IMG/VR virus record: IMGVR_UViG_3300031998_000057
Coordinates: 1-64,000 of that record
DNA from: a virus
Taxonomy: Duplodnaviria > Caudoviricetes
Strand: one strand, 5' to 3'
DNA length: 64,000 bases
This document shows, piece by piece, positions 2,228 through 57,009 of the stretch. The notes beneath the pieces are model-generated. The model was not told the DNA's origin, did not search any database, and was given only the letters and a program-made list of their open reading frames with translations. The position numbers and the translations under genes were made by a program. Position 1 is the stretch's first letter. Every line of letters starts with the position of its first letter.

Positions 2228-2461
2228 TCACTCGCCCCTCCCGCTCCAATGCTCCCCGCACAGCTTTTCAATTGTAGCTTTCAGCGATCCGACTACGACC
2301 TCCGCCTTGCCGTTGGAGAAAACGATTTTCGTGTTCCCGCCTACGTCCGTCAGATACTCCTTCACATAGACGATCTGCGCAGGGTTCACATAGATTTTAT
2401 CCGCCGGGTCCATCGCCCGCCGGAACGGTACAAACTCCGTCCCGCTCATCAATATCACCAT
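2228..2461 (-). CDS. hypothetical protein
   Basis: 77-aa ORF in operon. Confidence 0.6.
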   Translation of the reverse strand: MVILMSGTEFVPFRRAMDPADKIYVNPAQIVYVKEYLTDVGGNTKIVFSNGKAEVVVGSLKATIEKLCGEHWSGRGE

Positions 2462-3254
2462 CCTTCAAGTGTAATCTGCGCATTTTTCTTCAAAACCGAG
2501 TCTGGCGGTATTTCCTGCCCGTTCACGACCTTATACAGCCGCTTCGTGCAGATCGGGCAAGTGTACTCCACGCCGTATCGGTTATCTCTCACAATGCCCG
2601 TACCTCCGCAGCAGCTATACGGCACGATCATATCTAACGTGGGCCGCGGTTCCTCCGCATAAAGGCAATGCAGTGATTTATCAAAAATATACGCATAGCG
2701 GTGTTTGCGCGGTTTGTCCACCCATACACCTTGTAAATCCCTCACCTTGCCCCTCGGCTTTCCCTGCGTCTCAAAGCTCCAAAAATCGGCCTTTTGGTCT
2801 GTCAGCCCGTAATACTTGAAATTGCAGACCTGATAGATAGACCCAACGTGGCGGTCAGAAGTTGCAAGAGTAATGACCGCTCGAATGTTATAATTCTTAA
2901 CTGCTCTTAACCCCCCCCCAACAAAAATGATGTGGCGTTTGACCCGTTCAAATTTGGCAGCATACAAAGCCGCGTCAGTTCCATCACGCTCTTGTTGTCG
3001 TTGGAAAGGCCGAACCAACCTTTCAGCGCTTCACTACCCTGCGGGCAGGCAAACGTCGCCACGCCCACAAGCTCCCACCCGCAGAAAAGGCCGAAGGAAT
3101 ATTGCGAAAAGAACTTCGCCGCGCCCAAATAGTGATACTGTCTCACGAAGTCGTAGGCAATATCCTTGCTGATCTCTCGGATTTTGAATATATCCTTTGC
3201 GCGGATCTTGTGTACCTTGAAACGGTCTATAAGCTCTTGCTCCGTATCACTCAC
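2455..3254 (-). pseudogene. mom: Mom-family (GNAT-fold) adenine-modification enzyme, frameshifted in a G9 tract
   Basis: HYLG..LVGVATF..ELTRL..N in one frame; VITLA..HVGSIYQ..NFKYYG in the next; the break is at C9 2911-2919. Confidence 0.75.
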
Positions 3255-3594
3255 CCTCCCCCTTTCTCCGCGCTTTGAGCGCGGCCAGCTCCTTTTCCAT
3301 TGCTTCGATTTCCGCATCAAGCAGCGCGTCCGCATAGTCCGCTGCAAGAAGGCTCCCGAAAAGGCTGACAAGCGGCGCGTCAAAGCCGTACACACGTTTC
3401 GTCGCCTCCGCAAGCCGAAGCGCCGTCGGCAGCGACAGATTGGCGCGTCCCGCCGCACGAATCCGTGAAAGATACCCAGGCGTCACGCCAGCCTCGCGCT
3501 CGATCACGCCGAGCATACACATCTCCCTGCCGATCAGCGTCACGTTCCGCACGAAATTCCGTGCCATCGCCTCCGTGTCCATGTTCTCAGGCAT
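3247..3594 (-). CDS. HTH-like hypothetical protein
   Basis: IEREAGVTPGYLSRI resembles an XRE helix-turn-helix. Confidence 0.55.
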   Translation of the reverse strand: MPENMDTEAMARNFVRNVTLIGREMCMLGVIEREAGVTPGYLSRIRAAGRANLSLPTALRLAEATKRVYGFDAPLVSLFGSLLAADYADALLDAEIEAMEKELAALKARRKGEGE

Positions 3595-4210: not shown

Positions 4211-5125
4211 TCACAGCATATTGAAAAGCGACTGCGTTTCCATTGCGGTCTCCCGCTCGGCCTGCCGCAAGTTTTTTACGGCAAGGTTGTAATAGCTTTC
4301 TTTCAGCTCCACACCGACGTATTTGCGCCCCATCTTCACGGCCTGATACCCCGTGCTGCCGATCCCGTTGAACGGGTCAAGAACCACGTCACCCAGATTG
4401 CTCCAAAGCTCCACGCACCGCTCGATCACGGGAAGCTGCAACGGCGCGATATGCTTTTCGTCGTTCTCGTCTTTGGCTCCGGCTCGGTTCAGCGTATCAC
4501 TCTGATTGATGTCCCACCACACGGGGCTGGCGTATTCGCTCCACACGGGAGACGCCACTTCCTGCCAATGGCTGACGGGATAGGTCTCATTCGTGTGGGT
4601 CACGCGCTGCGGGTTCTCACCGGGCTTGCGAAACGTCACAACGTAATCGGGAATCCCCATGCGGCTCATGCAGGAATCTTTTTTGATCTGCTTATGAAGC
4701 AGGCCGAGCGCTTTTGTCCTCTGCATTGCCGTCACCGGGTCTTTCCAAATGCAGACTTCCGAATGATAGATGAAGCCCACGGACTCCATCAGGCGGATTA
4801 CGTCGCCGCGAAAGTCTTTCAGCCCGATATACCCGTCCCGCTCTTTCATGGCCGGGATGTTCATGCAATGGACGCAGACGCAGCGCCCAGGCATCGTCAC
4901 CCGATACCATTGCTCCACGAGGAATTTGTACTGCTCAAAAAACTCCCCGTCAGATTTGCAGTTCCCCATATCCCTGTCGCTGTTGGAATAGCAGTACAAC
5001 TGAGCAAACGGGATAGAGGTCACGGAAAGGTGGACGCTGTTCGTGGGAATACCTTGCAGAATCTCCACGCTGTCCCCATGATAGAGAATCCAATTCTTTC
5101 CACGTTCCTGTCCTTCACACTTCAT
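4211..5125 (-). CDS. beta-class N4/N6 DNA methyltransferase
   Basis: GDS..VTSIPF (motif IV variant) followed by VLDPFNGIGSTG (motif I). Confidence 0.85.
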   Translation of the reverse strand: MKCEGQERGKNWILYHGDSVEILQGIPTNSVHLSVTSIPFAQLYCYSNSDRDMGNCKSDGEFFEQYKFLVEQWYRVTMPGRCVCVHCMNIPAMKERDGYIGLKDFRGDVIRLMESVGFIYHSEVCIWKDPVTAMQRTKALGLLHKQIKKDSCMSRMGIPDYVVTFRKPGENPQRVTHTNETYPVSHWQEVASPVWSEYASPVWWDINQSDTLNRAGAKDENDEKHIAPLQLPVIERCVELWSNLGDVVLDPFNGIGSTGYQAVKMGRKYVGVELKESYYNLAVKNLRQAERETAMETQSLFNML

Positions 5126-6537
5126 GCTGCATTAAATCCTCCTTCCACAAGCCATTCCGGGATAATCATTTCAACCGTCGGATTATACGGAATGGTAATT
5201 TTCGTTGTTCCCCTGATTTCCTGTTCCAGAATATCCTTTGTGTGCTTCACCATTTCATCGGTCATAGCCTTGGCCTGCTTTTCCTTGCGGTCGATATTGT
5301 CCTTTACCGCTCCCTCGGCCTCGCTTGTAATGATATGGACGTTTACGGTTTTATCCTGCCCGAACCGCCAACACCGGCGAATGGCCTGATACATCATTTC
5401 GTAGGAATCACTCAGCCCTACGAAAATCATGTTGTGGCAGTTCTGCCAATTAAGCCCCCACCCTGCAATCGAGGGCTTGGAAACGAGATAGCGAACGTCC
5501 CCGACGGTAAAGCCGTTCAGCATCTTCGCCTTATACTCCGGCGTATCGGTCCCGCGCACCTCAACGGCCTGCGGGATTACCCGTCTCAGCTCGTCCGCTT
5601 CCGCGTTGAGGTCGCACCAAACAAGCCATTGCTCTTCGGGACGCCTTGCAATCAGCTCGGCGGCCACGGCGCATCGGTCTTCCATGCTGTTTCTCCGTGC
5701 GGCCCTCCGTTCATTCAAGGTCTGCGCAATATCCGCGAAGAAGGAGAAGTTGTCGTCAATGACGTTTTCTTCGCTCTTTACCGTGTGCTGAATCGTCCGC
5801 ATTGTGGGGAGATCGTAGCCCGTTCCGTCATAGCCCAAATCACGCGGATTGGTGAGAACCACGGCCCACGTCGCCAGCCATTCCCAAAATCGCTCCTGCG
5901 CGTGTCCTTTCAGCCGCCATTTGCTCGTATCTCCACCGTCATGGATGAAATAAGTCGCCAACATTTCCGTCCTGTTCATCACGCCGCAGAACTCGGCCTG
6001 ATTGCCAAGCTCCATGTAATCGTTCGGGGCTGGTGTAGCGGTGCAGGACAGCTTATAGGGAGTATTGCGGAATTTCTCGATGATTTCCGTCCGAATCTTG
6101 CCGGAATAGTTTTTGAGGATGGAGGATTCGTCCAATACCACACCCCCGAATATGGAGCAGTCGAAGTGTTCAAGGATTTCGTAATTTGTCACGTTGATCC
6201 CGACGGAAACCTGCTTCTTCTCACGAACCACGCGCACGTTTTCATATCCGAACTTGTCCGCCTCTCGCTTCGTCTGTTCCGCGACGGCAAGCGGAGATAC
6301 CACGATTACGGGCTTGCCCGTGTGTTCGGCGACCGCCGTTCCCCATTCAAGGAATTGCAGTGTCTTCCCCGCCCCGCAATCCTCAAACAAAGCGCAGCGC
6401 CCTTTTTTCAAGGCCCAATACACAATGTCCTTCTGCCAGTCGAACATCTGCGGGCACATCAATTCTTTGGAGCGTTCAAACCCGGAACTGATCGCGGCGA
6501 TCTTTTTCTTCTCCAAAAAGCTCTCATATTCCGTCAT
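5122..6537 (-). CDS. SNF2/SF2-like helicase paired with the MTase
   Basis: [27 protein letters not shown]. Confidence 0.85.
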
Positions 6538-7250
6538 TCGTCCGCCTCCCATTTCATTCGCAGGCCCAAAGCGTGAATCTTGGCCTTGATCTCCTCCACG
6601 CTCTTTCGCCCCAGGTTGCGAATTTTATACATATCGTCCTCAGTCTCGATTTTGAGGATATCGCCCACCGTGCGGATATTCGCACGGGCAAGGCAGTTAA
6701 ACGAGCGCACGGACAAATCCAGCACATCGGTCGTCAGATCAACCACACGCGCTGCTGGCCTGTCCCCGTTGGGGTCAAGAACCACCTTGTAATCGACGTG
6801 CTGCAAGAACCAGTCGAGCCGCTGCTCCGCCGCCGCGCACCGCCGCTCCGCTTCCTCACGCTTCTTGATTTCGCGCTGATATTCCCGCCAAGGTACGCAG
6901 GCGAACTGCGCCAACCTACCCGGATGACGCAGCTTGCGAAGCGCTTTCGCCTCGATCTGCCTTATCCGCTCGCGGGTCACGTTGAACGCCCTGCCCGTCT
7001 CTTCGAGCGTTTTATGATCCCGATACCGAAGCTCCAAGACCCGCTTTTCCCGCTCAGTCAAAGTGTTCAGAAGCCCCATGATCGCCGCTGGCGTGTAGCA
7101 TTCGGGGGCAATATCATCGCCCTCCGGCGTCTTGTACCGCCGCCATTCCTCCGCAGCCGCGTACATCAGCCCGTAAGGCCACGGGGCCTCGCTGAGCGTA
7201 CTGCGCAGATATGCCATTTTGTCTCTATATGTTTCCATGCTTTCCTTCAC
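6534..7250 (-). CDS. sigma70 region-4 / RNA polymerase alpha-CTD fusion protein
   Basis: [33 protein letters not shown] (RpoD r4) and [23 protein letters not shown] (RpoA CTD). Confidence 0.85.
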
Positions 7251-7642
7251 TCGTCCTCCCTGTCGTAATCATCGTGCGGCTCCGTGCGGAACCACTCGAT
7301 CATGTTCTCCTCACACTCACGCGGACATGAGCAGATTTCAGATACGTCACCGTCGCTGTCTACGCCGTGTATCACGCTGATCTTCTTCCCAACAGCGTTC
7401 ACCGCACGGGCCAACAATGCCGGATAACCGTCTGAGGCCCGCACGACCTTCACGGCATAGCCCGTCTTATCCCCTTGAAATGCGTGGTAGTCCCGCACTT
7501 TCAGCCGCAGCTTCGGCGTTATCGGCAGCTTCATGTCCCAAAACGTCGGGCGGTAGTACGGTGCTTCCGTTTCCGTCACTTCTCCATCTCCTTCCCTTTG
7601 CCCTAATGTAACTCCTCCCACAATGAAAAGCGGCGGTTCCAA
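7247..7642 (-). CDS. hypothetical protein
   Basis: 131-aa ORF overlapping the downstream start. Confidence 0.55.
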
Positions 7643-8439: not shown

Positions 8440-8528
8440 TGGCGCAGGCAGCAGGATTTGAACCTGCGGAGCCTTTCGGCCCATCTGTTTTCAGGACAGA
8501 CGCAATAAGCCAGCTCTGCCATGCCCGC
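8440..8528 (-). tRNA. tRNA-Ser(TGA) with C33
   Basis: Cloverleaf with long variable arm, G73, encoded CCA; anticodon loop CC-TGA-AA. Confidence 0.85.
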
Positions 8529-8704: not shown

Positions 8705-8782
8705 TGGTGGGCCGTCAGGGACTCGAACCCTGATCTTCTCTGCTTTTGAGGCAGCTCCGTCTTCCCATTGCGGCAACGGCCC
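8705..8782 (-). tRNA. tRNA-Leu(CAA)-like with short variable region
   Basis: GGGCCGT/ACGGCCC-A-CCA, loop CT-CAA-AA, T loop TTCGAGT. Confidence 0.75.
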
Positions 8783-9063: not shown

Positions 9064-9088
9064 ATTATACGGATTATTTTTTGGACGG
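9064..9088 (-). promoter_or_regulatory. class II motif CCGTCC-N13-TATAAT
   Basis: Upstream of the small ORF and RNA cluster. Confidence 0.6.
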
Positions 9089-9501
9089 CCTGAATACCAC
9101 CACCATGCTCGGAAACGGCGCGGAATTGTCGCTCCCGCCGAATTTCAGCCGCCCCTTGACGAATCGAACCTCCGCCTGCTTGTAGATGTAATCGTGGAAC
9201 CACCGCGTATCCGTCCGCGCAGGAAGCAGCATGACCACCGTGGCCCCGTTCTTCGCCGCTTCCCACGCTTTCGCTACCCATCGGCCTACCTCACGACCAT
9301 ACGGGGGATTGCACCAACAGCACCCCCCCAATTTTTGGAAAGTCCGTCGTCCTTCGGCGTGTAGTACCGCGCACACTTCGCGTTCTCCGGCAGCGCGGCC
9401 ACGTCAAGCGTGAAGTGAAACTCGGCGTCCAGCTCGTCGAAAAACGCCTGCGGTGTTTCCCATAAGCCCGTCGCGCTCGAAAACATCAAATCCGTGTTCA
9501 C
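9074..9501 (-). pseudogene. phage DNA N6-adenine methyltransferase (phage Dam family), frameshifted in a G7 tract
   Basis: WETPQ..FTLDVAA..DDGL in one frame; WCNPPYG..LLPARTDTRWF in the next; the break is at C7 9323-9329. Confidence 0.85.
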
Positions 9502-12129: not shown

Positions 12130-12167
12130 GCATTTTTTCGGCATTTTCCGAAAAAATTTTGCTCGGC

Positions 12168-13590: not shown

Positions 13591-13788
13591 ATGAAGATTG
13601 AACAGACGCAGGCATTCCGTTTAACCGTGGATCACATGGTTAAGCTGGGAAACGATCACAAATTTGACAAAGAGTTTCCATTTTCGGAGTTTTTGTCAAG
13701 GACTAAGACTCTGCGCGGCGCAGAGTTTGCGCGCAAGGCGGCTGCAAAAGCGAACCAACGTTTACGCTGCAAACTGTATGTTGCTTGA
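13591..13788 (+). CDS. hypothetical protein
   Basis: GGAGG RBS. Confidence 0.6.
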   Translation: MKIEQTQAFRLTVDHMVKLGNDHKFDKEFPFSEFLSRTKTLRGAEFARKAAAKANQRLRCKLYVA

Positions 13789-22883: not shown

Positions 22884-23062
22884 TTTCATAGTGAGTGTTG
22901 CAGCACTCGCTTACAAAGCAGTATCGCGGACACGGTACGGCATTATTATCGCCTTTTATGCCCCTGCAAGGGCATTTTAGGGCTATGCTTTGCATAGCAG
23001 CAACCGCCGCCTCATGTGTCCGCATGGGGCGGCGTGTCTTTTATGCAAGGGAGGCAAACAAG

Positions 23063-24031
23063 ATGCCATTTATCCGTGTACCGCAAGACAAAGACTTCTC
23101 AATCGTTCCGAACAGCATTTACCGCGACAATCGGCTAAATCTTAGGGACATTGGTTTGCTGACCTATCTCCTGCATCTCCCGAATGATTGGGATTTTTCA
23201 ATCAAAGGCTTGGAGAGCATCATCCCTAACGATGGGAGGGACGGCATAGCCGCCAGTTTGAAGAGGATTGAGAACGCCGGGTATCTTCGCCGTGAGCAGA
23301 TGCGAAACAAGGGCGGCACTCTGGGCGAGGTCATCTGGACGATTTCAAACGCTCCTTTACCGAAAACGGATTTTCCGTATACGGCTAATCCGAATACGGC
23401 TGAACCGAATACGGTTAATCCGACACAACATAGAACTAACGGAACAAATAACGAAATTAACCGAGAACAAAAGGACGGCGTATTGCGCTCCGACGAGCGG
23501 AGCGACGACGCGGCCCATGATTTGAGTCCCATTGTAGTTTCTGAGAGCAAGAAGCGCGGGAAGAAGCGGAACAACTCGTTCACGCCTATCGGGTATACGG
23601 AGCAGCTTTTCGGCAAGGACTTTGCCGCCGATGCGCTTTCCTTTGTGAATGACTATGTGGAGAAATACTACCCGCAGTACCGTAAAGAACCGCATCCCGT
23701 AGTAGACGATGAAGAAAAAGCCGAATGTGCTTTCAGGGTCCTTTGCTGTGCCGCAGAGCTTGGCGTGAGAACGGCTTTTGTTGAGCAGAGGCTATATCAG
23801 GCTGCCATGCGCGAAGCAACGTACAAGCCGCTCATAAGCAAGGTCACAAGCCCCCGTTCCCTTGGCTATTGGCTTATCAATGACGGTGATATGCAATCCG
23901 ACAAACTGAACAGCACCCGCTACAGCTTGGAGATTGGGCCACCGCCGATGGGCAAGCCTATCAACTCGATCACCGTGGCGGCATGGAAAGAAAACACACA
24001 GCCGCAAAGCACCCGATACAGACCACAATAA
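23063..24031 (+). CDS. winged-HTH replication-initiator-like protein
   Basis: FSIVPNSIYRD..LS/LN..GLLTYLL.LP.DW.F..L..DG..I..L..AGYL.R. Confidence 0.65.
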   Translation: MPFIRVPQDKDFSIVPNSIYRDNRLNLRDIGLLTYLLHLPNDWDFSIKGLESIIPNDGRDGIAASLKRIENAGYLRREQMRNKGGTLGEVIWTISNAPLPKTDFPYTANPNTAEPNTVNPTQHRTNGTNNEINREQKDGVLRSDERSDDAAHDLSPIVVSESKKRGKKRNNSFTPIGYTEQLFGKDFAADALSFVNDYVEKYYPQYRKEPHPVVDDEEKAECAFRVLCCAAELGVRTAFVEQRLYQAAMREATYKPLISKVTSPRSLGYWLINDGDMQSDKLNSTRYSLEIGPPPMGKPINSITVAAWKENTQPQSTRYRPQ

Positions 24032-24232
24032 GCAAAGCGCACAACTATCAGTAATTATTAGTCACTGACAGTTACCATCACCATCAGCACCAGCATCAGC
24101 ATACCCATCAGCAACCACACCCCCAAAAGCAACAGCAAACCCAGCGCCACCGCCAACCGAAAGAGGATAGGCAAGGGGATGCAAGGGGGAAGGAAAGGGG
24201 AAAGCAAGCGCCGACGCCTTTTTTCGGCGGTT

Positions 24233-24266
24233 GGTAGCCGTTTCCGCATCTTCCCCGTTTGGTATA
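24233..24266 (+). promoter_or_regulatory. class I motif (N17) overlapping a TG-TATAAT
   Basis: Copy 10, upstream of the recombinase. Confidence 0.7.
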
Positions 24267-24286
24267 ATCGAAAGGAGGCACACACT

Positions 24287-25351
24287 ATGAACACCATCGA
24301 CCGTTACGACGCTCTGCGCGACCGTTGGCTCCGCATGGCGAAGCGAAACAACCTCACCGGCACCACGCTCCGCGCTTATGAGTCCGTCACGGGCCTGCTG
24401 CGGGACTTCTTGCAATCCCGCATGGAACAGGGTATAATCAAGGAAGAACAGGAATACGTCAGCTTCGACGATATTCAAGCGTGGATCGACGCGATGACCG
24501 ATGCGGGGAACAAGGTCAGCAGCATCAAGCAGCGCCTTGTCACGGCGAACCAGTTTTTCACCTTCGCCACGAAGCCCTACGTCCCCGCAGAACTGCGTTA
24601 TGAGCTGTCCCCCGTATCTCCCGACTTCTATCCGAAAGTCCCCACAGAGAACATCCCGGAAGCCCTGACGGACGAGGAAATCACCGAGCTTTGGAAGTAT
24701 GAGCGGAAGTACAAGGCCACGGACGCAGGCTTCGCCCGTAACTATGCCATCGTCGCCCTCATCCTCACCACGGGTCTGCGGAACAAGGAAGTGCTCGATC
24801 TCAACCTGGACAGCATCGACCTTGCCAACGGCGAGGTTTGGGTACACAACGGCAAGGGCCGCAAGGACCGCGTCGTGGATATGGACTCCGGCGGTCTCTG
24901 CGCCGCCGCCCTGGAAAACTATCTCCTGCACGGAGACAGACCGCAGAACATCCCAAACTCCGCTCCCCTCTTCGGCACGACAGCGGAACACAGCTTTGGC
25001 AAGCCTCAGACCACCGAGGGCGCGGAGAAATGGCACAGAGGCACGGGCGCATGGCTGTCCGCCCTGATCGAACGCCACGTTTTCAATCAGACGGGACGGC
25101 ACGACTGCCGCAGCCATGACCTCCGGCACACCTACGCCCGCTTGATGCTGAACAGCACGGGCAACCTTGCCGAGCTGCAAAGCTCCCTTGGACATTCCGA
25201 TCCCAAGATTTCCGAGCGCTACTCTGGTAGACTGCTTCAGCGTCGGAGGAGGGAACAGACCCGCGCCGTCCTCGCCGCCCGCGACGAAGCCGCCGCCCGA
25301 CTCCGCGCCAGGAACAGGCAGGAACAGACCGTCATCGAACTTTACGCTTAA
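24287..25351 (+). CDS. tyrosine recombinase / integrase
   Basis: TGLR, GKGRKDR, HDLRH, LGH, Y catalytic set. Confidence 0.92.
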   Translation: MNTIDRYDALRDRWLRMAKRNNLTGTTLRAYESVTGLLRDFLQSRMEQGIIKEEQEYVSFDDIQAWIDAMTDAGNKVSSIKQRLVTANQFFTFATKPYVPAELRYELSPVSPDFYPKVPTENIPEALTDEEITELWKYERKYKATDAGFARNYAIVALILTTGLRNKEVLDLNLDSIDLANGEVWVHNGKGRKDRVVDMDSGGLCAAALENYLLHGDRPQNIPNSAPLFGTTAEHSFGKPQTTEGAEKWHRGTGAWLSALIERHVFNQTGRHDCRSHDLRHTYARLMLNSTGNLAELQSSLGHSDPKISERYSGRLLQRRRREQTRAVLAARDEAAARLRARNRQEQTVIELYA

Positions 25352-55004: not shown

Positions 55005-56173
55005 TATTCCATCACCTCTTCGGCATACCTCCAGTGAAAGCCCCCGGCAGTATAGTGGTGATTTACACAACACTTTCCAATATTACGCCGTTGGATGCCC
55101 GTTGCTTTCGCCGCCTCACTAACGCTCTCGTATCGTTCCAATGTTTCTACATTGATAACAGCACGCGGAATCCCAGCGTTTTGTATAGGCTTGTGACTAA
55201 TTCCTGTATTAACATCGGCATCTTTCAAATCAACATATTCCCATACATCGCCATGAACCGTTTTGCGTATCCCCTTGCAGACTCTTGCGATTGATGTATC
55301 GCTGTACCCGTACTTCCTCGCTGCTTCTGTTGCACTGGCAAATTCTTCTCCTGTTTTCTTGTTCCTAACAGGTTTCCGCCTTTTATACTTTTTCATCGGC
55401 ACGAAAGTCCCGTATTCTTCTTCGTAACAAAAGGCATATCCACCTGACCTCCTGCGCTTACCCTCGCACGTCAGAACTATCCCTGCGGCATTTACCCCAG
55501 TATCTCTTGCTGCCTCGTTAATACTGATGTATTTTTTGCCGGTATCTATGTTTATTACAGGTCGATATGCCCTGTTGATTTCCGGCTCAAACGATTCAGC
55601 GTCTTCCAAATAGCACCAATGATAACCGGCGGCTGTGTGAGACGGATTCCTAATCGCCAATATTATCGGTGTACACCCCGTCAGTCCCATTTGTCTTGCC
55701 GCTTCAGAAAGGCTCGGATAAATCACTCCCGTTTCATAGCAAAGAATCGGCTTTATAATTCCAACTTTCACCTTTGTTTCAAGCGCCTTTGCTATGGACT
55801 CAGGTGTTTGCTCTCTCCCCACTTTTGTGCGTTCTACTGTTGCACGGTCTCTGACTTCCTTTGGAACGTCTTTACATTTTGCTATATTCCCATACGGAAG
55901 AATGTTATACCCGTGATTTTTGTCTGTAGTCTTGTACTCCGCAATCAGAGTACGTTCTATGCTTTCTGCCTCTTCTTTTGTTAGGTCCTCGTACAGCACG
56001 ATGTGTTCGATGTTATCCCAACCGTATTTGTCTATCGCCTTTTTGAATGCGGAGCAAGTCTCATATCCTCGTCCATAAGCCCACCGCTCAGACACTTTTT
56101 TGCCTGTTATTCCGAAATACCTTTTACCGCTCGGGGTCTTATGACAATAAACGGTATATTTTTTCTCGCCCAT
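55004..56173 (-). CDS. GIY-YIG endonuclease with NUMOD1-type repeats (homing-endonuclease-like)
   Basis: VYC..KRYFGIT; repeated V.N.ETG..Y.S..EAA..TG..C..AGG..W.Y; lower GC. Confidence 0.8.
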   Translation of the reverse strand: MGEKKYTVYCHKTPSGKRYFGITGKKVSERWAYGRGYETCSAFKKAIDKYGWDNIEHIVLYEDLTKEEAESIERTLIAEYKTTDKNHGYNILPYGNIAKCKDVPKEVRDRATVERTKVGREQTPESIAKALETKVKVGIIKPILCYETGVIYPSLSEAARQMGLTGCTPIILAIRNPSHTAAGYHWCYLEDAESFEPEINRAYRPVINIDTGKKYISINEAARDTGVNAAGIVLTCEGKRRRSGGYAFCYEEEYGTFVPMKKYKRRKPVRNKKTGEEFASATEAARKYGYSDTSIARVCKGIRKTVHGDVWEYVDLKDADVNTGISHKPIQNAGIPRAVINVETLERYESVSEAAKATGIQRRNIGKCCVNHHYTAGGFHWRYAEEVME

Positions 56174-57009
56174 CAGTTCTCACCGTCCCCGTGATACTCA
56201 CCGCGCACAAGGCCGAGATAGTCATACACGTCCGTTTCCGTCTGATTAGGCTCTTTCTCGAACTGCGCTTCATAAGGCCCGAAGTCGAAGTCTTCCGGCA
56301 GCTCCGTGGACTCCGGCAGATCGTCGTTTTTCTGCATCGTGCGGAGTATCGCCATCATCGCGTGTTCCTCCGCGTCCACGGTCTCAGGGTAATGCTTGCT
56401 TCTGCACCAGGTAAAAAACGCCTGCATCACGTCGTCCTTCGTCATTTCCATCGTGAGACCGAACTTTTTCCGCAGCGCGTCCACGAAGCCGTCCGGTCTC
56501 TGCTGCGCCGAGGGAAGGATATCGGCCTTCCGCATATTAGAGTCCTTGAGGTTGTCGCGGATCATGGCGTCAAGCTGCTTTGCCATCGCCACAGAGTCCT
56601 TGTCCGCCTTGCGGATGAGCTTGTTGCGCTGCAAGGCCATCATCGCGCAGGTACGGGCCGTATCGTCCTGCTGCCTGTCGATGCCTCCCGTGGCGTCGAG
56701 CTGTGAGGTCATTGTGCGGTACAGATCGTCAAGCTGTCGGTAGTCGCTCTCCGTGTAATCGTCGCCCCACAGCGTCGCCCAACGCTCCTGAGACGGAAGC
56801 CCCGCCAATATAGCAGCGTTCACGTCCTTCTCTCCGTCCGCGAATGTGCTTTCCCCAATGGCGTCGGCATAGACCGTCCAGCTTCCCGCGTCGCTCTCAG
56901 GCTCGTAAGCAACGTCAAAAACGGCGCACATACAGTAAAGCGCCAGGTCGGGGCCGATTGTCTGCGCGAGCCTGCCGTAGCATATTTCTCTGCTGATTTT
57001 ATCGTCCAT
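56173..57009 (-). CDS. putative terminase small subunit / packaging protein
   Basis: Position upstream of terL; W..WG.DY. Confidence 0.45.
   Translation of the reverse strand: MDDKISREICYGRLAQTIGPDLALYCMCAVFDVAYEPESDAGSWTVYADAIGESTFADGEKDVNAAILAGLPSQERWATLWGDDYTESDYRQLDDLYRTMTSQLDATGGIDRQQDDTARTCAMMALQRNKLIRKADKDSVAMAKQLDAMIRDNLKDSNMRKADILPSAQQRPDGFVDALRKKFGLTMEMTKDDVMQAFFTWCRSKHYPETVDAEEHAMMAILRTMQKNDDLPESTELPEDFDFGPYEAQFEKEPNQTETDVYDYLGLVRGEYHGDGEN

Follow-up and report, generated by a model that had tools for sequence, protein, structure and literature searches.

What use would a phage have for a protein that joins a promoter-reading end of the host sigma factor to that of the RNA polymerase (RNAP) alpha subunit? 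The question was raised by one gene in a 64,000-nucleotide stretch of phage DNA (the window), which consists of the first 64 kb of a 72.5-kb virus record in IMG/VR (IMGVR_UViG_3300031998_000057; linear, ~92% complete). The gene, delimited from the list of open reading frames (ORFs), Pfam and homologue clusters, lies at 6534..7250 on the minus strand (stop codon included) and encodes P0001, a protein of 238 residues in which sigma region 4 (sigma4) is followed by the C-terminal domain of alpha (alpha-CTD). P0001 combines the promoter-reading parts of a sigma factor and an alpha subunit without being either. The reading that we favour, tentatively and with somewhat less than even confidence, is that P0001 is a polymerase-free reader that would occupy -35/UP promoter DNA.

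Two polymerase domains in one phage protein

An earlier note, made from the letters of this DNA alone, had described a single ORF carrying a near-RpoD region 4, a linker and an RpoA C-terminal domain. This description was borne out throughout by Pfam and phmmer, and both motifs quoted in it were present; a domain search, as proposed in the note, and an AlphaFold2 prediction returned two confident domains, Sigma70_r4 and RNA_pol_A_CTD, with a helix between them. Sigma70_r4 (PF04545) matched residues 60-109 (nucleotides 6924-7073; E 9e-19, 67.2 bits against a cut-off of 24.1), and RNA_pol_A_CTD (PF03118) matched residues 172-226 (E 3e-21, 75.4 bits against a cut-off of 23.8). The NCBIfam RpoD and RpoA models matched P0001 solely through these two end domains, the rpoA matches being limited to the last ~70 model positions and falling far under the cut-off. 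When solved structures were searched by phmmer, residues 55-113 aligned with residues 542-604 of E. coli sigma70, with a loop between regions 4.1 and 4.2 that was four residues shorter, and residues 166-233 aligned with the RpoA CTD of B. subtilis, the alpha-CTD to which that of P0001 bore the greatest likeness.

The sigma4 domain as a whole (4.1, 4.2 and the C-terminal helix) spans residues 54-116 (6903..7091, minus strand). Within it, the recognition stretch of the helix-turn-helix (HTH), residues 91-110 (6921..6980, minus strand), was identical to the primary-sigma consensus: all 20 positions carried the majority residue of a comparison set of 70 bacterial RpoD genes from diverse phyla. Residues R93, E94, R95, R97 and Q98 of P0001 are equivalent to R584, E585, R586, R588 and Q589 of E. 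coli sigma70, which are the readers of the -35 hexamer. The alpha-CTD, a helix-hairpin-helix domain supported by Pfam, Foldseek, phmmer and conservation, spans residues 166-236 (6543..6755, minus strand); its residues R182, N185, C186, N212, G214, K216, S217 and E220 correspond to R265, N268, C269, N294, G296, K298, S299 and E302 of E. coli alpha.

AlphaFold2, run on P0001 with a 52-sequence family alignment, gave a mean predicted local distance difference test (pLDDT) of 83, with the two domains predicted confidently at pLDDT 86-97. The model comprised N-terminal helices at residues 8-19 and 26-34, a five-helix sigma4 at 54-116, one long helix of 31 residues joining both domains (121-151; 6798..6890, minus strand), which also showed in the family column statistics, a disordered stretch at 155-165, and the alpha-CTD at 166-236. 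Foldseek matched the model to the B. subtilis alpha-CTD (1z3e_B; root-mean-square deviation 1.4 A, 57% identity), to domain 4 of S. aureus sigmaA (4g6d_A; 60% identity) and also to 3n97, in which an alpha-CTD lies beside sigma4 on UP/-35 DNA.

The domains that would make either parent protein work within the enzyme were not found. The sigma2 domain (Pfam Sigma70_r2) was detected neither in P0001, which has only 55 residues ahead of region 4, nor in the whole 72.5-kb phage record at E<=1, and Pfam gave the CTD only, with no alpha N-terminal assembly domain (RNA_pol_L/RNA_pol_A_bac) in P0001. P0001 shares with sigma4 of SigA/RpoD (PF04545; 4g6d, 1tlh, 3n97) the fold, the recognition stretch and the residues that contact the -35 element, the backbone and activators; it differs in having no sigma2 or sigma3, a shorter 4.1-4.2 loop, an extra N-terminal helix, and a C-terminal helix that continues into the linker. 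Because sigma2 and sigma3 are absent, P0001 can neither form a holoenzyme nor melt DNA. It has the same helix-hairpin-helix fold as the RNAP alpha-CTD (PF03118; 1z3e/3gfk of B. subtilis, 3n4m of E. coli), and since it has no alpha N-terminal domain it is not assembled into RNAP. Two trivial explanations were rejected. P0001 is not one half of a split sigma factor, because the 72.5-kb record has no sigma2 domain to complement it; nor does it reflect host contamination or a chimeric assembly, as the same architecture recurs in thousands of clusters with a conserved N-terminal motif of their own.

A phage-borne family and its conserved positions

In a word-indexed search, ~66 full-length clusters carried both Pfam domains, some with an extra N-terminal XRE-type HTH. 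A profile search of 1.84 billion representatives returned 2,117 clusters (50% identity) at E<=1e-30; the best 150 of these 2,117 matches all had E<1e-53 and were mostly single full-length matches of 190-310 residues. At least eleven clusters of 50 or more members in the ESM Atlas share the architecture, and wherever a label was given it was viral. P0001 fits the family architecture, with both domains in the order sigma4 then alpha-CTD and a helical linker between them. The six genomic contexts looked at were all phage contigs, in which the gene was co-stranded with replication or recombination genes; the neighbours across the six were DnaB, SSB, RecT, primase, helicases, methyltransferases and Mom. 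No conserved partner gene emerged, the small downstream genes in two other contexts being unrelated to each other.

Members are rare among the species-representative genomes that were searched. Full-length members were found by the family profile in 2 of 400 Clostridia genomes, and a search with P0001 of 301 genomes from one order of Clostridia gave no match at E<=1e-20. A scan of genome contigs, its output swamped by RpoD genes, returned no family member. Among the INPHARED phages there was no full-length match, only single-domain matches, mostly to host rpoD or rpoA carried in the records. A full-text literature search found no paper describing the sigma4/alpha-CTD fusion architecture; a 2026 preprint on sigma-domain evolution reports that sigma4-only proteins are common in phages and does not mention alpha-CTD. 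The P0001 family appears to be very large, phage-borne and unstudied.

Conservation was scored in an alignment of 88 diverse short family members. In sigma4, R93, R95, R97 and Q98 were present in 100% and E94 in 98%, and the backbone-contact pair was equally constant (R67 100%, E68 98%). The activator-contact patch K102/R105/K106/R108/H109 was conserved at 85-99%. In the alpha-CTD, R182, N212, G214 and E220 reached 100%, N185 99%, C186 95%, and K216 and S217 90-92%; these conserved residues are the equivalents of the UP-element determinant ('265 determinant'), which is complete in P0001. The alpha-sigma contact pair was mostly retained, with R112 (equivalent to sigma70 R603) in 69% and an acidic residue at position 178 (equivalent to alpha E261) in 87%. 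The position of the alpha '287 determinant', which is used by activators, was variable, and alpha-CTD surface positions off the DNA-binding face varied freely. Median identity to P0001 across members was 13% at the N-terminus, 12% in the linker and 40% in the alpha-CTD. By this measure the family is fast-evolving except at the positions that would read DNA and partners. The earlier note had named degenerate DNA-contact residues as a refuting observation; the residues were found to be 90-100% conserved in both domains. Because the DNA-reading positions are the same in phages whose genes are otherwise unrelated, the target should be one that is universal in the hosts. The simplest such target is sigmaA-type promoter DNA, the alternative being a universal host protein surface.

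A short N-terminal motif (residues 24-34 of P0001; 7149..7181, minus strand), part of which is predicted by AlphaFold2 as the helix 26-34, was common to all members, including those fused to XRE. It reads aromatic24-P25-x-N27-L28-x-x-A-I/V-F/Y, with the aromatic residue at 24 in 100% of the 88 members, P25 in 99%, N27 in 93% and L28 in 86%. The version in P0001 is W24-P25-Y-G27-L28, and G stands at the N position in 5% of members. In many members the motif is NLARAIF, and the flap-tip helix of clostridial RpoB is RLLRAIF. This likeness was first spotted by eye and was then scored with a position-specific scoring matrix (PSSM) of motif positions 27-33 applied to the full sequences of three RpoB proteins. 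Among 971-1,285 RpoB windows, that of the flap tip, (R/K)LLRAIF, ranked 1st, 2nd and 1st, and wider PSSMs placed it at ranks 1-3; as the three RpoB proteins are homologous, the scan was counted as one test, with p roughly 0.001-0.002.

In the holoenzyme the hydrophobic groove of sigma4 receives the flap-tip helix, its natural partner. Structures in which sigma4 was stabilised for crystallography by a fused flap-tip helix (3t72, 7kuf, 8cwr) were among the structure matches. Engineered sigma4/flap-tip chimeras (3t72, 7kuf, 8cwr/8cwt, 8d5v) resemble P0001 in that sigma4 is covalently joined to a flap-tip or flap-tip-like helix; in the chimeras, however, the real flap tip is attached C-terminally, whereas in P0001 the flap-like motif is N-terminal and its packing into the groove is predicted. 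From the motif we infer that the N-terminal amphipathic helix probably fills the sigma4 groove in place of the flap tip. The equivalent of sigma70 L607, which was Leu in 99% of the 70 RpoD genes, was a variable hydrophobic residue in the family, and this would fit an altered partner for the groove. Covariation between the N-terminal motif and sigma4, measured as mutual information with average product correction (MI/APC), was noise at an effective number of sequences (Neff) of 69, and a phmmer search of the N-terminal peptide against the PDB gave no match. With a flap-like cap built in, the module would be soluble and would not depend on the polymerase, and such a cap would argue against docking on the real flap.

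The linker helix carried family-wide hydrophobic positions with heptad spacing (124/127/131/134/138/141/145/148; L134 in 71%, L141 in 64%), with Asn at position 138 in 19% of members. The pattern suggests a coiled coil, possibly a dimer, which would thereby supply two alpha-CTDs; the linker of P0001 itself is largely charged in the middle. Longer relatives matching the profile carried sigma4 with two or three alpha-CTDs, or a pair of sigma4 domains with as many alpha-CTDs; the holoenzyme itself combines one sigma4 with two alpha-CTDs. Other relatives joined an HA domain to sigma4 and two alpha-CTDs, and SAP-like domains were also seen. Two proteins of ~1,050 residues (P0125 and P0160) combined an N-terminal SF2 helicase (with HA) with sigma4 and two or three alpha-CTDs; a protein of 1,003 residues (P0121; locus L103, 2281-5292) carried three Spo0A_C domains, sigma4 and three alpha-CTDs; and one of 1,031 residues (P0122) had ten alpha-CTD repeats. 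These four large proteins all came from short metagenomic contigs. Recurrent joining to further DNA-binding domains is what would be expected of a DNA-binding module, and the Spo0A combination would, by its domain content, recreate in full the nucleoprotein complex that forms upstream at sigmaA promoters dependent on Spo0A.

Proposed polymerase-free promoter reading and its alternatives

In the reading that we favour, P0001 would belong to the early or middle proteins of a temperate Firmicute phage and would have been put together from copied modules of the host RNAP. Its sigma4 HTH, bearing the recognition residues of the housekeeping sigma factor, would read a -35-type hexamer, and the helix and flexible tether would place the alpha-CTD on the adjoining A/T-rich minor groove, as at an UP element. 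The N-terminal helix would substitute for the flap tip and yield a stable module independent of the polymerase. P0001 could in this manner occupy -35/UP DNA in trans, and the result would be competitive occlusion of -35/UP-dependent promoters, for example strong host ones, in lytic growth, from which extended -10 promoters would escape. Occlusion, as the direction of the regulatory effect, is put forward with less confidence than the occupancy of DNA. The ternary complex in 3n97 shows an alpha-CTD and a sigma4 bound next to each other on UP/-35 DNA; there the same two modules sit on adjacent sites in mutual contact but come from two polymerase subunits, whereas in P0001 they are on one chain, separated by a linker of ~50 residues and free of polymerase, and binding is predicted. 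Extended to the whole family, as a single-chain copy of the flap-tip helix, sigma4 and alpha-CTD that binds -35/UP DNA without polymerase in phages of Firmicutes and apparently of other hosts, the proposal is more doubtful still.

Phage G1 gp67 acts through sigma4 to block UP-dependent rRNA promoters, and gp39 of Thermus phage P23-45 disables -35 recognition while sparing extended -10 promoters. Together with T4 AsiA/MotA, these are phage early proteins that silence -35/UP-dependent host promoters by binding the host sigma4 or the flap. P0001, which has no sequence relationship to any of them, would compete for the DNA itself. By analogy, there is precedent for the goal (gp67, gp39) and none for the means.

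Several points weigh against this reading. Isolated sigma4 and alpha-CTD are each weak DNA binders, and avidity or dimerisation of P0001 has to be assumed. The predicted template modelling score of the AlphaFold2 model was 0.47, which gives no reliable inter-domain arrangement, and the relative placement of the domains is therefore undefined. The flap-tip score was small (7.6 bits over 7 residues) for a likeness picked out by eye, and the motif of P0001 itself matched the flap tip more weakly than did the family consensus. A general -35 occluder would also strike the sigmaA-type promoters of the phage itself, and the depletion of TTGACA in the phage was modest (8 observed against 22 expected from dinucleotide shuffles and 14.5 from a Markov-4 model; rank 206/4096). 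No cluster of candidate binding sites was found in the phage, and promoter scans were uninformative. Finally, the activator-contact residues K102, R105, K106 and H109 of sigma4 are conserved along with the DNA-reading ones, so that readings built on a protein partner keep some weight.

The earlier note had proposed that P0001 mimics the upstream half of the holoenzyme and had offered activator, repressor and decoy as possible roles. The mimicry fits the data, given contact residues conserved at 90-100%, relatives with sigma4 and two alpha-CTDs, and a flap-tip-like helix. Among these three roles repression by occlusion is tentatively ranked first. Activation has the next best claim but is unlikely. 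P0001 would bind a -35-like or A/T-rich site at middle or late phage promoters and recruit the host holoenzyme through alpha-CTD/sigma4 and alpha-CTD/alpha-CTD contacts, filling the role that RinA/ArpU-type late regulators have in Firmicute phages. Like P0001, RinA and ArpU (TIGR01636, TIGR01637) are small sigma-related early-region regulators of temperate Firmicute phages; unlike P0001, their families have no alpha-CTD. Neither had a homologue in the whole record at E<=1, and since there is no sigma2 domain either, the fusion gene is the only sigma-related gene in the record, which favours such a role. So do its early-region location ahead of the late block, the retained alpha-sigma contact pair, the resemblance of XRE-fused variants to an operator-binding domain with an effector module, and eight promoter-like elements in the window that have an A/T tract upstream and lack TTGACA at -35. 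The recognition helix, however, specifies TTGACA-type DNA, unlike the GGTAGCC box of those elements; a sigma4 placed on the -35 element blocks that of the polymerase itself; and a strong terminator, with no evident promoter, lies ahead of the late block. Phage-specific sites should moreover co-vary with their reader, yet the DNA-reading residues are invariant across ~2,100 clusters, and this invariance across unrelated phages therefore weighs against a phage-specific activator.

The remaining explanations share a difficulty, because the strict conservation of base-contact residues counts against each of them. It is improbable that sigma4 attaches to the beta flap-tip helix of the core enzyme or of elongating RNAP, takes the place of sigmaA region 4 or NusA, and re-targets or antiterminates the host enzyme in the manner of T4 gp33, T4 AsiA-MotA or P23-45 gp39. 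The hydrophobic core and the C-terminal helix that form the flap groove are retained, and the terminator directly ahead of the first late-block gene could give an antiterminator its use; flap-binding gp39 is described (PMC3351154) as inhibiting -35 promoters and also antiterminating. Such docking would nevertheless not require the base-contact residues of sigma4 or the DNA determinant of the alpha-CTD, it would face competition for the groove from the conserved flap-like helix at the N-terminus, and the L607 equivalent is variable in the family and invariant in RpoD. We give no greater probability to a decoy or sponge, whose free sigma4 and alpha-CTD surfaces would titrate proteins that bind those host domains; candidates are host activators, Spx-type regulators and proteins of competing phages (gp67-like sigma4 binders, alpha-CTD-modifying enzymes). 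A decoy would suit the conserved activator-contact patch, the ten alpha-CTD repeats of one relative and a gene whose divergence far outpaces that of the genes beside it (48% identity versus 85% and 78%), and the nearest solved alpha-CTDs are Spx complexes (1z3e, 3gfk) and the nearest solved sigma4 a gp67 complex (4g6d). Fusions to XRE, Spo0A_C and HA are hard to square with a soluble sponge, the '287 determinant' position is variable, and no candidate partner was identified. Least probable of all is an accessory role in replication or recombination, in which P0001 would be a DNA-targeting subunit working with the translationally coupled SNF2 helicase, for example clearing promoter-bound polymerases in advance of replication or loading the helicase at A/T-rich DNA. 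The 4-nt start/stop overlap with the helicase gene, here and in a related contig, the placement of the family always within replication modules in the contexts inspected, and the two relatives that are single proteins with an N-terminal SF2 helicase point that way. The helicase of these fused relatives has no detectable similarity to the SNF2 helicase of the window, though, and adjacency to SNF2 is confined to a close subfamily, other members adjoining unrelated genes.

If the favoured reading of P0001 as a polymerase-free promoter reader is true, it would represent a new principle in the transcription conflict between phage and host, with the phage copying the promoter-reading parts of the polymerase and using them against or alongside the enzyme, and a new route to shut off or re-route host transcription through competition for the promoter. 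The module would be a portable one for promoter targeting, joined by evolution to Spo0A DNA-binding domains, XRE HTH and helicases, and the Spo0A-fused relatives hint at interference with sporulation promoters. It would also provide a natural, compact and polymerase-independent probe of -35/UP promoters and a test bed for sigma4/alpha-CTD cooperation.

Gene neighbourhood and other sequence features

The phage is temperate, carrying genes for an integrase (24179-25351) and a replication initiator (22895-24031). Relatives of its large terminase occur in Bacillus, Lactococcus and Clostridium phages and in a human faecal phage, and the host group is Firmicute. The fusion gene lies near the head of a long leftward gene block in the order tRNA-Leu and tRNA-Ser, 131-residue ORF, fusion gene, SNF2 helicase, DNA methyltransferase, Mom-like genes, dUTPase and a PAPS-reductase-like gene; farther along the same strand are RecT, an HNH endonuclease, the terminase and structural genes. 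The 131-residue ORF upstream (7247..7642, minus strand), of unknown function and without a PHROG match, ends on the GTG start of the fusion gene (GTGA overlap); GTG at 7250 and ATG at 7238 are both possible as the start codon. Downstream, the fusion gene and the SNF2-type helicase gene (5122..6537, minus strand; PHROG 62/16) share the four letters ATGA, which hold the start codon of the latter and the stop codon (TGA) of the former; homology places the start of the helicase at M6 of the listed ORF. The N6/N4 DNA methyltransferase gene (4211..5125, minus strand) is the third of a conserved trio. In the related phage contig L105 (940-3932) the trio is syntenic with window positions 4211-7250 and has the same 4-nt overlap at the helicase. 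Compared with their L105 counterparts, the helicase was 85% and the methyltransferase 78% identical but the fusion protein only 48%, a pattern to be explained either by mosaicism at this locus or by a regulator that evolves much faster.

Immediately ahead of the fusion-gene operon, the phage carries genes for tRNA-Ser(TGA) and tRNA-Leu(CAA) (8440-8528 and 8705-8782, minus strand). At the other end of the window, a strong intrinsic terminator at 57062-57036 (minus strand; 10-bp stem, 9 G-C pairs, T-run) sits 25 nt upstream of the gene at 56173-57009, the first of the HNH-terminase-structural block, and no evident promoter was seen between the two. Late expression may require read-through or antitermination. 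Two modification genes were apparently split: a Dam-like N6-adenine methyltransferase into overlapping ORFs at 9286-9501 and 9074-9376 (minus strand), the second half holding NPPYG, and a Mom-like gene into overlapping ORFs at 2907-3458 and 2455-3018 (minus strand), each matching phrog_1384. Both splits may be frameshifts, either programmed or erroneous.

The promoter-like element of ~50 nt occurs in eight copies between 12149 and 18120 on the plus strand (near 12149, 12707, 13062, 13504, 13846, 14408, 16975 and 18086). Its layout is an A/T tract (AAATTTTTTT), GGTAGCC, 16 nt and then GTTTGGTGTA(A/G/T)(G/T/A). Each copy lies 25-65 nt upstream of the ribosome-binding site of a small plus-strand ORF, often right after a terminator, and GTTTGGTGTAGG with up to two mismatches occurred 10 times against 2.6 expected. 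The element resembles an extended -10 with G at -11 and without TTGACA at -35, and could represent either a special class of promoter or an array of operators. In the same region, at 13664-13699 and inside a small plus-strand ORF, an inverted pair of TTGACA (TTGACAAA-N22-TTTGTCAA) accounts for 2 of the 8 TTGACA in the 64 kb; the rough chance of any such close inverted pair is ~0.03.

Several palindromic hexamers were scarce in the window, where a Markov model predicted 45-90 copies of each: GGCGCC and CTGCAG were found twice, GCCGGC and CGATCG four times, and AGGCCT, TGATCA, ACGCGT, GAGCTC and TCGCGA not at all. This scarcity amounts to strong restriction-site avoidance and fits the several methyltransferase and Mom-like genes of the phage.

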